A stretch of DNA of 64,000 nucleotides, from the NCBI GenBank assembly GCA_944320495.1, contig CALUHR010000001.1, forward strand, positions 1 to 64,000, given 5' to 3'. Source of the DNA: Candidatus Methanomethylophilaceae archaeon (GTDB lineage Archaea; Thermoplasmatota; Thermoplasmata; Methanomassiliicoccales; Methanomethylophilaceae). The stretch's first letter is position 1; the number at the start of each line of letters is the position of its first letter. Under the pieces are notes generated by a model. That model was not told the DNA's origin, searched no databases, and saw only the letters and a list, made by a program, of their open reading frames with translations. The position numbers and the translations under genes are program-made. This document shows, one piece after another, positions 9,055 through 29,165 of this stretch.

Positions 9055-9142
9055 GGACGTGCCAGCGCATCGGCCCTTTTTATATTCGGATGCCTCCGGA
9101 TGGGGATTGTGAAGGTCCGTTCAGACCCGGCGCAGAGGATGC

Positions 9143-9781
9143 TCGCCGATCCCTGGATGCCAGCCTCCTCCCCGTCGAGTAGGCGTTCTCCAGGTCCTTC
9201 GGGAACTGCGTCCTCCTGACCTCGGCCTTGTGCTCCGCATCGAACCCTGCCGCCCTGTACTTCGAATAGTCGTCGAACTGCAGGGTGTCGCAGCAATGAT
9301 GGTGCTCCACCGTCCCTCCGAGCTTCATCAAAGGGAGCATGGTCCGCTCGTAGAGCTCGTCGTATCCGCGGTAGTCGGATGGGAGGTTCATCGTGAAGAA
9401 GAACGCGACGTCGGTGCGCTTGGGGTGTATTACCCGGGTCGCGTCGTCATAGGTCATCGTGACATATCCCAGACGCTCGAGGAAGTTCCTCATCATCCCG
9501 GTGACGTCACCGAAGTAGATCGGGGAGCCCAGCAGGAGGACGTCCGCATCGAGTGCCCCCTCGAGCACCGGTGTCAGACCGTCCCTGTGATAGCATCTGC
9601 AGTAGTCCGCGTTCCTCCTGCGACAGGCGAAGCAGCTGACGCAACCGGAGAAGTCCAGGTCCGCGAGATGGACCATCTCAGTATCCGCGCCCACGGATGC
9701 GGCGCCCTCGAGGGCCCTCTCCAGGAGCATATCGGTGTTCCAGCCCTTCCTCGGGCTTCCGTTGACGGCCATGACTTTCAT
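9143..9781 (-). CDS. Flavodoxin family / NADPH-dependent FMN reductase (iron-sulfur flavoprotein-like); ends at CGA
   Basis: GSPRKGWNT, CVSCFAC and GSPIYFG motifs; C-terminus AYSTGRRLASRDR then CGA at 9145-9143. Confidence 0.85.
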
Positions 9782-9790
9782 AGCATCACA

Positions 9791-10333
9791 TCGGTGGCAG
9801 CTCTTCCCCATCTCGTATGCCTGCAGCATGAACGGAGTGCCAACCACGGTCCCCTTCTCGAAGACTCCGGTGGCCTCGACGGTCCCGCCTTCGACGGAAC
9901 CCTCCAGGCATTCCGCCAGGCCGCGCATGCAGTCGATGGCGCAGGAGGTGACATGGTCGTGGGTCTCGGCCCCGGCGGCGATGTAGTAGAACGTCTTGCC
10001 GCTGACGGCCTTCCAGCGGGCGTTGAACCTGTCGATGAGGGCCTTCAGCTGGGCGTCCACCGAGTAGAAGTACACCGGGCTGGCCAGCACGATTATGTCG
10101 GCGGCCTCCATCTTGGATATGATCTCGGGGACGTCGTCCCTGATGCAGCACTCTCCCCTGCCGTCCTTGCAGTGGTAGCAGGCGGTGCAGAAACCTATCC
10201 TCCTGTTCCTGAGGTTGATCTTCTCCACGTCATTGCCCGACTCAACTGCTCCGCGTACGAACTCGTCGCAGAGGAGGTCCGTGTTGCCTCCTTTGCGCGG
10301 GGACGCCGAAATCACAACTATCCTCTTGGACAT
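9791..10333 (-). CDS. Flavodoxin family / NADPH-dependent FMN reductase paralog; ends at CGA
   Basis: SASPRKGGNT, CTACYHC and ASPVYFY motifs; ends AYEMGKSCH then CGA at 9793-9791, 9 nt before the next ATG. Confidence 0.85.
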
Positions 10334-19953: not shown

Positions 19954-21035
19954 AGTTTCCCCTCCCTGATCATCCTGCCGAACCAATCGAACAGGTAAGA
20001 GGTGTCGCAGGGCCCGGGCGAGGCCTCGGGATGGTACTGGGACGTGAAGATGGGCAGGTTCTTGTGGACGACGCCCTCGACCGACCCGTCGTTGACGTTC
20101 TTCTGGTTGACGACGAGGTCGGTGCCGTCGAGGCTGTGCTCGTCGACGGCGAATCCGTGGTTCTGGGATGTGATGTAGACGCGGTTGTCGCATTTCACCG
20201 GCTGGTTGCATCCCCTGTGGCCGAACTTGAGCTTGTAGGTGGAGCCGCCCATGGCGATGCCGATGAGCTGACTGCCGAAGCAGATCCCGAACATCGGGAG
20301 CTGGCCGGCCAGGTCGGACACGGTCCTTACGGTGGTCTTGAGGATGTCCGGATGGGACGGGTCCCCCGGTCCGTTGGATATGAGGACTCCCTTCACTCCG
20401 GACTCGACGATAACGTCGGCGGGGGTGTCGTACGGGAACGTGACCACGTTGAACCTGGCGTTCAGGTCCCTCTGGATCCCGGACTTGGTGCCGCAGTCGA
20501 TCAGACCGACGGTGATGTCCTTGCCGTTGTCCCTGGACGAGATCTCTTTGCACGAGACCTCACTGACCAGGTTGCTCTCGGACGGGGCGGGCATCCTCTG
20601 GAGCCTCTTGATCGTCTCCTCCAGACCCTCGGCGTCCGTGGTGATGGCGCCCTTTACGGTGCCGCCGGTACGGATCTTGATGACCAGCTCCCTGGTGTCG
20701 ATGCCGGAGATGCCGGGTATGCCGTAGAACTTCAGGAAGTCGTCGATGGTCCTGCTGCCGTACATCGGGGACGGCTCCTTGCAGTATTCCCTGACCACGA
20801 GACCCCTGGTGTGGATCGCCTTTGACTGATAGTATTCCTCGGCAACGCCGTAGTTGCCGATGAGCGGATATGTCATGACGAGGATCTGTCCACGGAACGA
20901 CGGGTCGGTCAGGCTCTCCTGGTAACCGCACATGCCGGTCGTGAAAACTACCTCTCCGTCCGTCTCGCATTCCGCGCCGAACGTCTCCCCTTCGAAAACG
21001 GTCCCGTCCTCCAGGACCAAGTATCCCTTTGCCAT
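19950..21035 (-). CDS. carA: Carbamoyl-phosphate synthase small subunit
   Basis: GEVVFTTGMCGYQE, SNGPGDP, GICFGSQL and QYHPEASPGP motifs; ATGA overlap with carB. Confidence 0.97.
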   Translation of the reverse strand: MAKGYLVLEDGTVFEGETFGAECETDGEVVFTTGMCGYQESLTDPSFRGQILVMTYPLIGNYGVAEEYYQSKAIHTRGLVVREYCKEPSPMYGSRTIDDFLKFYGIPGISGIDTRELVIKIRTGGTVKGAITTDAEGLEETIKRLQRMPAPSESNLVSEVSCKEISSRDNGKDITVGLIDCGTKSGIQRDLNARFNVVTFPYDTPADVIVESGVKGVLISNGPGDPSHPDILKTTVRTVSDLAGQLPMFGICFGSQLIGIAMGGSTYKLKFGHRGCNQPVKCDNRVYITSQNHGFAVDEHSLDGTDLVVNQKNVNDGSVEGVVHKNLPIFTSQYHPEASPGPCDTSYLFDWFGRMIREGKL

Positions 21036-21186
21036 CGGGGATTTCTCAGATTTGAGGACCGTATATAATGTCTCCGAACGGGTCATGACACCCCGCTCGG
21101 AAGGTTGTCGGATAGGCGACATAACCGGGTCCGGGCGCTCCCGGGCGGGCGACACCTCTTTAGGCCCGGCGGGATATGGGCGGCCC

Positions 21187-22227
21187 ATGCGCATCCTGGG
21201 CGAGGACCGTGGGTCCGGCAGCGTGAAGGTCCTCATCGAGACCGACGAGGACATCTGGCACCTCTACAACGTGATCGAGGTCGGGGATCTCGTGACCGCA
21301 TCCACCACACGCAGGGAGGAGAAGTCGGCCGACAAGATCCGTGCCGAGAGGGCGGAGAAGAAGAGGATGACCCTCGGGGTCCGCATGGAGAAGATCGAGT
21401 TCTCCGAGGAGGACCTCCGCCTCAAGCTGCTCGGCACCATCGAGACTGGCCCCCAGGACATCGGCCAGCACCACACGCTCATCCTGGAGACGGGCGATTC
21501 CCTGACGATCGCGAAGACGCACTGGAGGGAGACACAGCTGGAGCGTCTCCAGCGCGCCGTCTCGGATTCGAAGAAGCCGAGGATCGTGTTCGTGTCCCTC
21601 GACCAGGACGAGGCGACGATAGCCGTCCTCAGGCAGTTCGGCCTGAAGGAGGTCGTCACCATAAGGTCCGGGAGGTCCGGCAAGCAGTACGCGGAGAAGC
21701 CCTCCGCCGACGGCTACCACGCGGAGATAGCGGCGAAGCTGGCGCCGCTTATGGAGCCCAACATGCCGCTGGTGCTCCTCGGCCCCGGGTTCGAGAAGGA
21801 GACCCTCTCGGAGGACCTGAAGAAGGCGGATCCGTCCGCGTTCGGCAGGATGTACGTCTACCACACCGGTCAGTGCGGGATGGCGGGGATCAACGAGCTC
21901 CTCAAGGGGGGCATGGGCGCCGACGTCCTCAGGGACTCCGCGGTCGGAACGGAGATCGAGGCCGTGGAGAGGCTGATGGCCGAGATATCCAAACCCAACG
22001 GCCTGGGGACCTACGGGACCCAGGAGGTGATGGACGCCGCCATGGCCGGAGCGGTCGACACGCTGCTGGTGCTCGACTCCAAGGTCCGCGAGCAGGACAT
22101 GGACGACGTGGTCCGCGCCGTGGAGTCCCAGAAGGGCAGCGTCATCGTGGTCTCGGGGCAGCACGACGGCGGTCGCGCCCTCGCATCCCTGGGGGGCATG
22201 GGAGCCATCCTCAGGTACCGTCTCCGA
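21187..22227 (+). CDS. pelA: Archaeal Pelota (aDom34) ribosome-rescue factor; ends at CGA
   Basis: ETDEDIWHLYNVIEVGD start, LLGPGFEK, and the family C-terminus GGMGAILRYRL directly followed by CGA at 22225-22227. Confidence 0.92.
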
Positions 22228-22240
22228 CGTCTCGCCGAGC

Positions 22241-22247
22241 TTATATA
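22241..22247 (+). promoter_or_regulatory. TATA box for the downstream homocitrate-synthase-like gene
   Basis: TTATATA between the Pelota CGA and ATG 22318. Confidence 0.5.
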
Positions 22248-22317
22248 TCGCGCATTTATATGGCGGGTCAGCGAAGGCCGTGCCAATGCGGGCATGGACC
22301 ATTCGGATGGGATGCAT

Positions 22318-23502
22318 ATGAAGACCAAGAGCGAGGTAGTAGAACGTCTGAACGCCCCCCTCTGCATCTGCGACTCCACCCTCGGAGCCGGAGAGCAGGC
22401 CGCCGGTGTGGTGTTCTCGAACATCGAGAAATACAGGATCGCGCAGCACCTGGACAACGCCGGCGTCCCCCAGCTGGAGGTCGGGAACCCGATGGTGGGT
22501 ACCGAGGAGAAGACCGCCGTGAAGCACATCGCCCACATGGGGCTCAGTGCATCCGTCATGTCCACCAACAGGGCGGACATCGCGGACATCAACGCCAGCA
22601 TCGAGTGCGACGTGGACGCCGTCTCCATCTCGCTCCCCACCTCCCAGCTCCAGATGGCCGAGATCCTCGGCAAGGACTCCAACTGGGTGCTCGACAAGGT
22701 CTTCGAGGCCGCTTCGTACGCCGCGCAGCACGGCCTCTACATCTGCTGTGTCGCGGAGGACGCCTCCAGGGCCGACCTCGGTTTCCTCATAGAATACGCC
22801 AAGGCCGCCAAGGACGCCGGCGCCGACAGGTTCGGCTACGCGGACAGCATAGGCGTCGAGGATCCCTTCACCTGCAACGAGCGCATCAGGATGCTCAAGC
22901 AGATCTCCGGAATGGACGTGGAGATCATCACCCGCAACGACTTCGGCATGGCCACCGCGAACACCGTCGCCGCCGTCAAGGCAGGGGCCAGGTTCGCCAG
23001 GGTCACCGCGATGGGAATCGGCCCCAGGGCCGGATGTGCCCCGCTGGAGGAGGTCGTCATGGCCTCCAAGCACGTCCTCGGAATGGACACCGGCGTGGAC
23101 ACCGCCAAGCTCCGCCCAGTCGCCGAGTCCGTGTCCGTAGCCTCAGGCATCTCCATCTGGCCCAGCAAGCCCATCATAGGATCCAAGTGCTTCGCCCAGG
23201 AGACCGGGTTCGTCAACAACCCCGCCGTCACGGAGCCCTACGACCCCGCAGAGGTCGGAACCGAGAGGTCCCTGGTCATCGGAAAGCACTCCGTCAGGAA
23301 TACCATCGTCGCCGCCATGAGCGACATGGGCATCGAGATCAGCAGGAACGATGCGGAGAACCTCCTCGTCCTCGTGAGGAAGGCCTCCTCCCAGATGCAC
23401 CGCTGCCTCAACCAGAGCGAGCTGTTCCTGCTCTACGAGGATATGATGTCCGGCAACAACACCTTCGACGACGTCCCCGTCCAGGACGCATCAGTCCAGT
23501 GA
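22318..23502 (+). CDS. Homocitrate/isopropylmalate synthase family protein (NifV/AksA-like) with a degenerate active site
   Basis: DSTLGAGEQ, LEVG, AEDASRAD, NDFGMATAN and GKHS place it in the family; several catalytic residues are substituted. Confidence 0.85.
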   Translation: MKTKSEVVERLNAPLCICDSTLGAGEQAAGVVFSNIEKYRIAQHLDNAGVPQLEVGNPMVGTEEKTAVKHIAHMGLSASVMSTNRADIADINASIECDVDAVSISLPTSQLQMAEILGKDSNWVLDKVFEAASYAAQHGLYICCVAEDASRADLGFLIEYAKAAKDAGADRFGYADSIGVEDPFTCNERIRMLKQISGMDVEIITRNDFGMATANTVAAVKAGARFARVTAMGIGPRAGCAPLEEVVMASKHVLGMDTGVDTAKLRPVAESVSVASGISIWPSKPIIGSKCFAQETGFVNNPAVTEPYDPAEVGTERSLVIGKHSVRNTIVAAMSDMGIEISRNDAENLLVLVRKASSQMHRCLNQSELFLLYEDMMSGNNTFDDVPVQDASVQ

Positions 23503-28178: not shown

Positions 28179-28757
28179 ATGGGACAGCAGGACGTCTGGG
28201 ACTCGTTCTACCGCTCCAACGGCCGGGCGTGGAGGGGCAACTGCAGGATGCCGGACCCGCTGGGAGGCGGGGGCGACGCCCTCGACCTGGGGTGCGGGAG
28301 CGGCAAGAGCGTGTCCACGCTGATCGACATGGGCTACAGGGCGGTCGGCCTCGACTTCTCGGATGAGGCCGTGTCCATGTGCAGGGAGAGGTTCGGCGGG
28401 GCGGCGGAGTTCGTCTCCGGCGATGTGCTGGCACTGCCGTTCGATGACGGTTCCTTCGACTATGTGACGGCTGTCCATGTGCTCGAGCACCTGACCGACG
28501 AGGCTCTCCGTACGGCTGCGGGGGAGATCGCGAGGGTCCTGCGCCCGGGCGGATACGCCTTCGTCAGGGACTTCGCCCCGGGGGACCTGAGATCGGAATC
28601 CAGGGAGGGGTCCGACATCAGGTACATTCACCGCACCCCCGAGGAGCTGGTCTCAGCGTTCGGGGACGTGGAGGTCGTGTCGGCTGGTGTCGTGGAGGAG
28701 AAGACGCGGTTCGGGGCGGTCCGCCGCCGTTCCGAGGTCCTCCTGAGACGCAGGCGA
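28179..28757 (+). CDS. Class I SAM-dependent methyltransferase; ends at CGA
   Basis: ALDLGCGSGK, GDVLALPFDDGSFDYV and EIARVLRPGG motifs; ends SEVLLRRR then CGA at 28755-28757. Confidence 0.85.
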
Positions 28758-28808
28758 TGCTTCCCCGGTCATCGAAGCCTATATGTTGTCGGGCCCAATC
28801 GGCCGTTT

Positions 28809-29165
28809 ATGAAGTGCCCCCGTTGTGGTCACGAGAATCCGGATGAGGTCCTCTTCTGCGAGGAGTGCGACTGGAGGGTCGACGTCCCTTACATACCGGA
28901 GAAGAAGCGCAATCCAGTGCATTTCGCAGGCGCGACGATCGTCCTGGGACTCATCGCCGCGGTGTGCGCGTTCATGAGCGGAACCGAGCTCGTGGCACTG
29001 GCCGTCGGAGCCATCGCCCTCATCCTGGGAGGATACTCCATGGGCGTCGCCAGACTAGTCGAGACCGACAAGACCCAGCTGTGCCTCGCCATCTCAGGTG
29101 TCGGTATGATCCTCGGGGTCCTCGGATTCCTCATCGGCTTCGCGTCCTTCGTGGGAGCGATGTGA
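28809..29165 (+). CDS. Zinc-ribbon membrane protein
   Basis: CPRCGHEN...FCEEC plus three hydrophobic helices; CTATATG TATA-like element about 25 nt upstream. Confidence 0.8.
   Translation: MKCPRCGHENPDEVLFCEECDWRVDVPYIPEKKRNPVHFAGATIVLGLIAAVCAFMSGTELVALAVGAIALILGGYSMGVARLVETDKTQLCLAISGVGMILGVLGFLIGFASFVGAM

Follow-up and report, generated by a model that had tools for sequence, protein, structure and literature searches.

Does the open frame that joins the Pelota gene of a gut methanogen to its downstream neighbour encode a single fused protein, or does it run across two genes separated by a stop codon which the standard code does not recognise? The question arose in a 64,000-nt stretch of archaeal DNA (contig CALUHR010000001.1, positions 1 to 64,000), called the window here and belonging to genome G000 of genus Methanoprimaticola/UBA71 (family Methanomethylophilaceae, gut methanogens). 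In this window the gene for Pelota (aPelota/Dom34 family) is followed by a gene of the homocitrate synthase family, termed AksA-like below, and no TAA, TAG or TGA separates the two in their common frame. That they are two genes, the first of which ends at a CGA codon, was well supported. Both are probably separate and ordinary, and CGA probably acts as a fourth terminator in the genus, interchangeable with TGA; such a switch from sense to stop in a free-living archaeon, suggested here by sequence statistics, would be of high interest.

The Pelota gene starts at ATG 21187, from which the Pelota sequences of relatives were also aligned (MRILGED...). Its C-terminus, GGMGAILRYRL, ends with the sense codon closing at position 22224 and is directly followed by CGA (22225-22227). 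The frame stays free of TAA, TAG and TGA from 20932 to 23500, which under the standard code gives an open reading frame (ORF) of 856 aa (20932-23502), or a read-through product of 771 aa from the real Pelota ATG. The match to the NCBIfam equivalog TIGR00111 (pelota) reached 279.1 bits (cut-off 177.65), residues 5-346 corresponding to profile positions 5-351 of 351, and Pfam domains eRF1_1 and eRF1_3 covered residues 6-125 and 255-346, the latter up to the end of its profile (106/106). Since both TIGR00111 and eRF1_3 reach their final position at residue 346, the Pelota family ends at the codon preceding CGA. Within the gene, GC content at third codon positions (GC3) was 0.93 and none of the 24 arginine codons was CGA. 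No GGQ motif was found in the 346 residues, as had been claimed initially, while aRF1 of the same genome displays GGQS.

The segment between the genes has another composition. Its GC3 was 0.55 (31 codons, 22225-22317, CGA included) against 0.93 in Pelota and 0.90 in aksA, no Pfam family, Rfam match or known RNA was detected in it, and its predicted folding did not exceed that of shuffled sequences (z = 0.12). It contains two A/T-rich, TATA-like boxes, and such boxes were encountered ahead of the aksA ATG, at a distance of 61-82 nt, in eight further relatives of the genus, in some of them followed by CGCGC; they presumably represent the aksA promoter. The AksA-like gene starts at ATG 22318, in frame with Pelota, and ends at TGA 23500-23502. 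These elements, like the C-terminus of Pelota followed by CGA and the TATA-like box at 22241, were present exactly as described in the initial annotation. The AksA-like product matched Pfam HMGL-like (PF00682, E = 1.4e-59, residues 16-272, profile 3-260/260) and HCS_D2 (PF22617, 29.2 bits, cut-off 27, residues 296-357). Its top NCBIfam match was TIGR02660 (nifV_homocitr), with 377 bits under a cut-off of 462.9, and all other models also remained under their cut-offs; the name AksA-like was chosen because no equivalog cut-off separating homocitrate from isopropylmalate or citramalate synthases was reached. The features of the locus are collected in the table below.

Table. Features of the Pelota and AksA-like locus, in window coordinates.
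Feature	Position	Strand	Evidence
Non-coding part of the standard-code ORF, 5' of the Pelota start	20932-21186	+	Position-specific GC 0.51/0.62/0.71 versus 0.64/0.40/0.93 inside Pelota
Pelota (aPelota/Dom34 family) coding sequence, 346 codons	21187-22224	+	TIGR00111; Pfam eRF1_1 and eRF1_3
In-frame CGA ending Pelota, probable functional terminator in the genus	22225-22227	+	Mostly TGA or TAA at this place in relatives, after ...LRY(K/R)x(x)
Linker between the genes, in frame over 30 codons, without standard stop	22228-22317	+	GC3; no profile match; variable in relatives
Two TATA-like boxes, candidate aksA promoter	TTATATAT 22241-22248 and TTTATAT 22255-22261	+	Recurrence in relatives
AksA-like gene of the homocitrate synthase family, 394 codons and TGA	22318-23502	+	HMGL-like; HCS_D2

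The standard-code fusion of 771 or 856 aa results from a coincidence: the 30 codons of spacer keep the frame and contain neither TAA, TAG nor TGA. Neighbouring genes share a frame in one case out of three by chance and a GC-rich linker of 30 codons is often without a standard stop. By our own gene call, 13 in-frame joins of this sort were counted in the genome, and 35 of its CGA-ended genes were followed by at least 300 further open codons. The in-frame join of Pelota and aksA is itself within chance; the behaviour of CGA across the genome is far beyond it.

CGA was absent, or nearly so, from conserved sense positions. It accounted for 14 of the 120,217 central codons of G000, although the trinucleotide amounts to 27.6 per 1000 of the DNA, for none of the 21,770 central codons of genus member G004, and for no internal codon of the 16 Pelota genes read from the genus; nor did it occur in codons 1-325 of any of the 65 Pelota genes read from Methanomethylophilaceae. 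It was found where the coding signal ends and where orthologues stop, as indicated by the fate of the signal, by the comparison with genome G008, by Pfam domain ends and by Pelota in six lineages. Past the first in-frame CGA after 40 coding codons, the coding signal continued in about 8 of 256 cases, while in the others (~248) it was lost or a standard stop was reached within 10 codons. By the same test, 70-80 % of the signals continued past AGA, TCA, ACA, CCA and CTA. An earlier segmentation test, which counted internal signal ends within 8 codons (48 for CGA versus 49 for TCG), was uninformative and was superseded by this window-based fate test.

TGA terminated 90 % of the long ORFs of high GC3 in G000. 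A home-made gene caller allowing four stops delivered 1569 genes, of which 1127 ended at TGA, 380 (24 %) at CGA, 46 at TAA and 16 at TAG; false calls are included in the 24 % and in the gradients derived from it. Among the 57 genes of the window, 18 ended at CGA. The comparison with G008 covered 360 kb of this complete genome from the same genus (G008:C1:1-360000). Of the orthologues of 33 CGA-ended genes, 42 % had their standard stop at exactly the corresponding position and 73 % no more than three codons away from it; the values for TGA-ended genes were 59 % and 92 %, respectively. Ten other CGA-ended genes of the window were translated past CGA with the standard code, and no Pfam domain extended across CGA in any of them: seven had every domain before CGA, two of these with a further domain restarting at profile position 1 behind it, and three had no Pfam match. 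The two with a restarting domain are additional in-frame pseudo-fusions. At 9083-10228 (-), a flavodoxin-fold gene is joined to an FMN-reductase gene, the FMN-reductase profile restarting at position 1 four codons past CGA, and at 28179-29165 (+) a methyltransferase gene is joined to a zinc-ribbon gene across CGA.

The use of CGA ends varied with codon bias and context. In the lowest codon-bias quintile 40 % of genes had such an end, in the top quintile 5 % (Mann-Whitney p = 4e-27), a gradient which false calls in the low quintiles may inflate; Pelota occupies the 72nd percentile of G000. The base following a CGA stop was T in 55 % (versus 29 % after TGA), C in 17 % and A in 7 % of the cases, and a standard stop came directly after 6.3 % of CGA stops versus 3.0 % of TGA stops. 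The CGA of Pelota and that of aRF1, which is described below, are both followed by C (position +4). In-frame CGAs with continuing coding signal were seen in G000 at C8 (+) ~55685, C13 (-) ~357786 (reverse-strand coordinate) and C8 (-) ~8034. Among the continuing cases, one (...GKTI-R-PFCT...) falls within a flavodoxin-like motif and another marks a junction ahead of a GmhB-like RAVFIDRD motif; these may be sense or read-through sites. An assembly or sequencing artefact was considered and rejected, the same CGA features being displayed by many independent assemblies, single-contig genomes included.

Which stop codon the Pelota orthologues of related genomes use was a check proposed along with the initial annotation. 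Pelota ended at TGA in 29, at CGA in six and at TAA in three of 38 genus genomes, counts which are not independent as the genomes are related. A second set of loci added one CGA lineage, for a total of six: G000/G018, G065, G035, G014, G010 and the metagenome-assembled genome (MAG) SIG8. In G065, G014 and SIG8, the last residues before CGA are identical to those of TGA-ended sister species (RYRMD-CGA versus RYRMD-TGA; RYKLE-CGA versus RYKLE-TGA). The RYRMD end of G010 is common to several TGA-ended genomes of the genus, which are not necessarily its sisters, and for G000/G018 and G035 the sample contained no TGA-ended genome with identical last residues. No sense codon besides CGA was met at the stop position of Pelota, including TGG, the other transition neighbour of TGA (six versus none). 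The next standard stop followed the Pelota CGA after 4, 9, 24, 47, 95 or 424 codons, and such distances give no sign of constraint past it. In three genomes of another family Pelota ends at the same place, with TGA. A 358-aa Pelota of a close relative (P0006), which reads ...RYKV-R-RPRR..., may be another CGA end. On the whole, Pelota was otherwise ordinary; its CGA end occurred at about the background rate (7-24 % CGA ends) and was scattered across lineages.

Twelve further genomes, including two of another family, retain the order Pelota then aksA. In all of these, aksA aligned from residue 1 (ATG 22318), occupied all three frames relative to Pelota and was separated from it by standard stops. 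Every relative outside the G000/G018 species group displayed stops and variable frames between the two genes, and in the 13 relatives measured the linker was 86-256 nt long and of varying frame, being longer still in G013. Neither a conserved Pelota-AksA fusion nor a linker evolving as coding sequence was encountered.

Other genomes served as controls. In outgroup G025 (GC 60 %), CGA was a normal sense codon, with 37 events of continuing and three of lost signal. In G004, for which training ORFs were filtered by GC3/GC2 against antisense ORFs, one of 18 CGA events continued. In G008 (GC 54 %), CGA accounted for 3 of 44,271 central codons and was almost never used at gene ends, CGG was rare too, and the CGA of aRF1 was kept; this genome looks like an "emptied codon" state. 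Judging from the figures for G004, G008 and G000, CGA stops make up different shares of gene ends within the genus, the largest in GC-rich G000. Two MAGs of Candidatus Methanoplasma were also observed, L218 with CGA at the conserved arginine of the terminal LRY motif of Pelota, and L215 with CGA just before the TGA of Pelota, at a position occupied by arginine in its sisters. Since CGA looks like a sense codon in both, the usage of CGA as a stop would have its boundary inside Methanomethylophilaceae.

The initial annotation had supposed that CGA might lack a cognate tRNA, which turned out otherwise. A tRNA-Arg(UCG) gene was located in G000 (C13:413317-413390 (+)) and in 15 further genomes, which makes 16 out of 19 examined in the genus; the other three, G006, G014 and G017, in which none was detected, are incomplete. 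Compensatory changes preserve four stem pairs of this tRNA. All 16 copies display an anticodon stem of 4 bp: 12 of them have a 31-39 mismatch (A.A, C.A or U.C), which is unique to tRNA-Arg(UCG) among the 45 tRNAs of G000, and in the four from the G008 group positions 27 and 43 are mismatched instead and the loop reads CCUCGAC, with C33 if the anticodon is UCG. In outgroups (five genomes from five families), the stem is canonical with 5 bp and the loop reads CUUCG(G/A)A. Such an atypical tRNA might decode CGA poorly.

The gene for aRF1 lies outside the window (G000:C2:85936-87165 (-)) and was the only strong match to an aRF1 query in the 90.6 %-complete G000 assembly. Exactly one in-frame CGA was encountered in each of the 15 complete genus aRF1 genes examined, in 14 of them at conserved R78 (IAA-R-LKTY, context NCU-CGA-CUN) and in G005 at conserved R25. 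The twelve outgroup genes considered encode R78 by CGC, CGU, CGG, AGA or AGG and carry CGAs elsewhere. The conserved CGA is a candidate autoregulatory read-through site. As the single conserved in-frame CGA sits in aRF1, competition between aRF1 and the tRNA, with feedback on aRF1, would be preferred to a sensor in Pelota. Beside its NIKS motif, aRF1 of G000 also displays genus-specific substitutions, namely Q53 (F/L/Y in outgroups), A56 (S), T63 (G/R/S) and M65 (Q/R), which may be regarded, as a lead only, as candidates for altered recognition of the first base.

Taken as a fourth terminator, CGA would have dropped out of sense use in the genus and would now be a stop alongside TGA. The ancestral TGA of Pelota could have been converted into CGA by one T-to-C change. 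At CGA, aRF1 may terminate translation while competing kinetically with tRNA-Arg(UCG), which would be weak or altered, and the in-frame CGA of aRF1 would then exert negative feedback on aRF1. Pelota would have no special role, its CGA end being one neutral case among several hundred. Some points tell against this view. Retention of the cognate tRNA with compensatory stem changes implies that some decoding of CGA as arginine must persist, and the few CGAs inside conserved domains (e.g. that of the flavodoxin-like protein on C8) suggest a leaky or context-dependent rather than an absolute stop. The Pelota CGA is followed by C, like the presumed read-through site of aRF1, this being a minority context of CGA stops. 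Recognition of CGA by aRF1 is purely our inference from sequence, and false calls of the home-made gene caller stand behind part of the 24 % share and its gradients. A leaky CGA could have two consequences, each of which, if true, would tie a surveillance factor to the decoding of the new codon. A regulated minority of ribosomes might produce a Pelota-linker-AksA fusion, which is conceivable because of the C at +4 shared with aRF1 and of the absence of a standard stop for 424 codons, or Pelota-type rescue might act on ribosomes paused at CGA. Either was given a small chance.

The initial annotation had rather considered that CGA is an unassigned, "hungry" codon without usable tRNA, that stalled ribosomes are resolved by Pelota/ABCE1-type rescue, and that the CGA end of Pelota is a feedback sensor of rescue capacity. 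The near absence of CGA as a sense codon, the anticodon arm, non-canonical wherever the tRNA gene was found (16 genus genomes) and with poor decoding as a possible result, and the scarcity of CGA ends under strong codon bias, as expected of a slow terminator, are all compatible with this. The tRNA gene is nevertheless present and its structure is maintained, while internal CGA is absent from the Pelota genes read in the genus and the family. Pelota lacks GGQ, and visual inspection of it aligned with three outgroup sequences revealed no genus-specific change, a gained GGQ being among those looked for. Dom34/aPelota cannot hydrolyse peptidyl-tRNA, so that a separate hydrolase would be needed for a quarter of all proteins. 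With rescue in short supply, a terminal CGA could do no more than hold back the release of completed Pelota, and the resulting feedback would be positive and not homeostatic. The CGA end is moreover not conserved (6/38 genomes, about the genome-wide rate), and the conserved in-frame CGA of aRF1 points to the release factor. Termination by stalling and rescue was therefore judged very improbable, and the sensor proposed for Pelota was not supported.

Editing of CGA into UGA in the mRNA, with the standard code kept at the ribosome, would account for the way in which TGA and CGA replace each other exactly at orthologous stops. Stop-creating CGA-to-UGA editing occurs in plant organelles, but we know of none in archaea; the single conserved CGA of aRF1 would have to be spared, and it would not explain why the anticodon arm of tRNA-Arg(UCG) has been remodelled throughout the genus. 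This possibility was considered highly improbable. Scarcely credible was a real Pelota-AksA protein of 771 aa under the standard code, whether a true fusion or the outcome of a TGA-to-CGA stop loss that is tolerated. The frame is open, a tRNA-Arg(UCG) gene is present and the product figures in public protein collections from several assemblies. However, the linker is non-coding in composition and contains promoter-like boxes, C-terminal garbage or fusions would be implied for about 380 genes, and at the stop position of Pelota TGA is replaced by CGA but never by TGG. Moreover, no such fusion was found in relatives outside the species group or elsewhere: among 5.8 billion clusters, of which the 8000 candidates sharing most words were scored, the only other protein combining Pelota and HMGL was a 730-aa copy with 94 % identity. 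Profile ends, linker composition, the conserved promoter-like box, relatives and genome-wide CGA statistics agree with the view, already held initially, that the 856-aa ORF is an artefact of the standard code.

The read-through product has already entered public collections, where the 771-aa sequence (P0002) represents a cluster of 41 members to which different assemblies contribute seven or more distinct variants of 771 aa (P0010-P0015 among the members). Annotation with the standard code would mis-extend or fuse about a quarter of the G000 genes, and this artefactual "protein" illustrates the consequence. The locus offers a clean case that can be checked, with one orthologous stop turned into CGA in six lineages, a predicted native C-terminal peptide of Pelota and a junction peptide predicted to be absent. 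The path of codon reassignment would also be testable, because the remodelled tRNA was retained and the aRF1 gene keeps one in-frame CGA. To our knowledge, no earlier sense-to-stop code change has been described outside organelles. If CGA is a working stop in Methanoprimaticola, it would, as far as we know, be the first of this kind, the closest paper in the library searched (see below) only raising the possibility for two other archaea.

Sense-to-stop codes are known from organelles (NCBI tables 2, 22 and 23), with AGA and AGG in vertebrate mitochondria, TCA in Scenedesmus mitochondria and TTA in thraustochytrid mitochondria. As in these, a former sense codon is missing from conserved sense positions and displayed at gene ends, and standard translation results in run-on ORFs. 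In contrast to these, the present case concerns a free-living (gut) archaeon whose 1.8-Mb genome contains about 380 affected genes and still has the cognate tRNA gene, and the release-factor gene retains one in-frame CGA.

The latter feature recalls bacterial prfB, an autoregulated release-factor gene with an in-frame UGA and a +1 frameshift. Like prfB, the aRF1 gene carries in frame the codon on which its product is thought to terminate, which would allow negative feedback. Unlike in prfB, the event would consist of tRNA read-through at a conserved arginine and would not involve a frameshift; it would concern aRF1 and not Pelota, for which feedback was put forward initially, and is suggested by conservation only.

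The tRNA itself has a counterpart in stop-to-sense changes, where an anticodon stem of 4 bp lets tRNA-Trp(CCA) read UGA (Blastocrithidia and ciliates; for bacteria, see Fakih et al. 2026, PMC13092985). In both situations the tRNA for the affected codon displays a 4-bp anticodon stem in a lineage with a changed code; here, however, the tRNA concerned is cognate to a codon turned into a stop, and the effect of the stem is putative.

The closest precedent was found in Melnykov 2026 (bioRxiv 10.64898/2026.04.02.715157), where the possibility of a CGA stop was raised for two archaeal assemblies from hydrothermal vents, CGA being absent from recognisable protein domains; the method used there cannot infer stops and the question was left open. 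Those archaea are other organisms, in which CGG is reassigned to tryptophan and no tRNA-UCG was found. In the genus considered here, by contrast, the evidence from gene ends is direct, CGG behaves like an arginine codon and tRNA-UCG is present.

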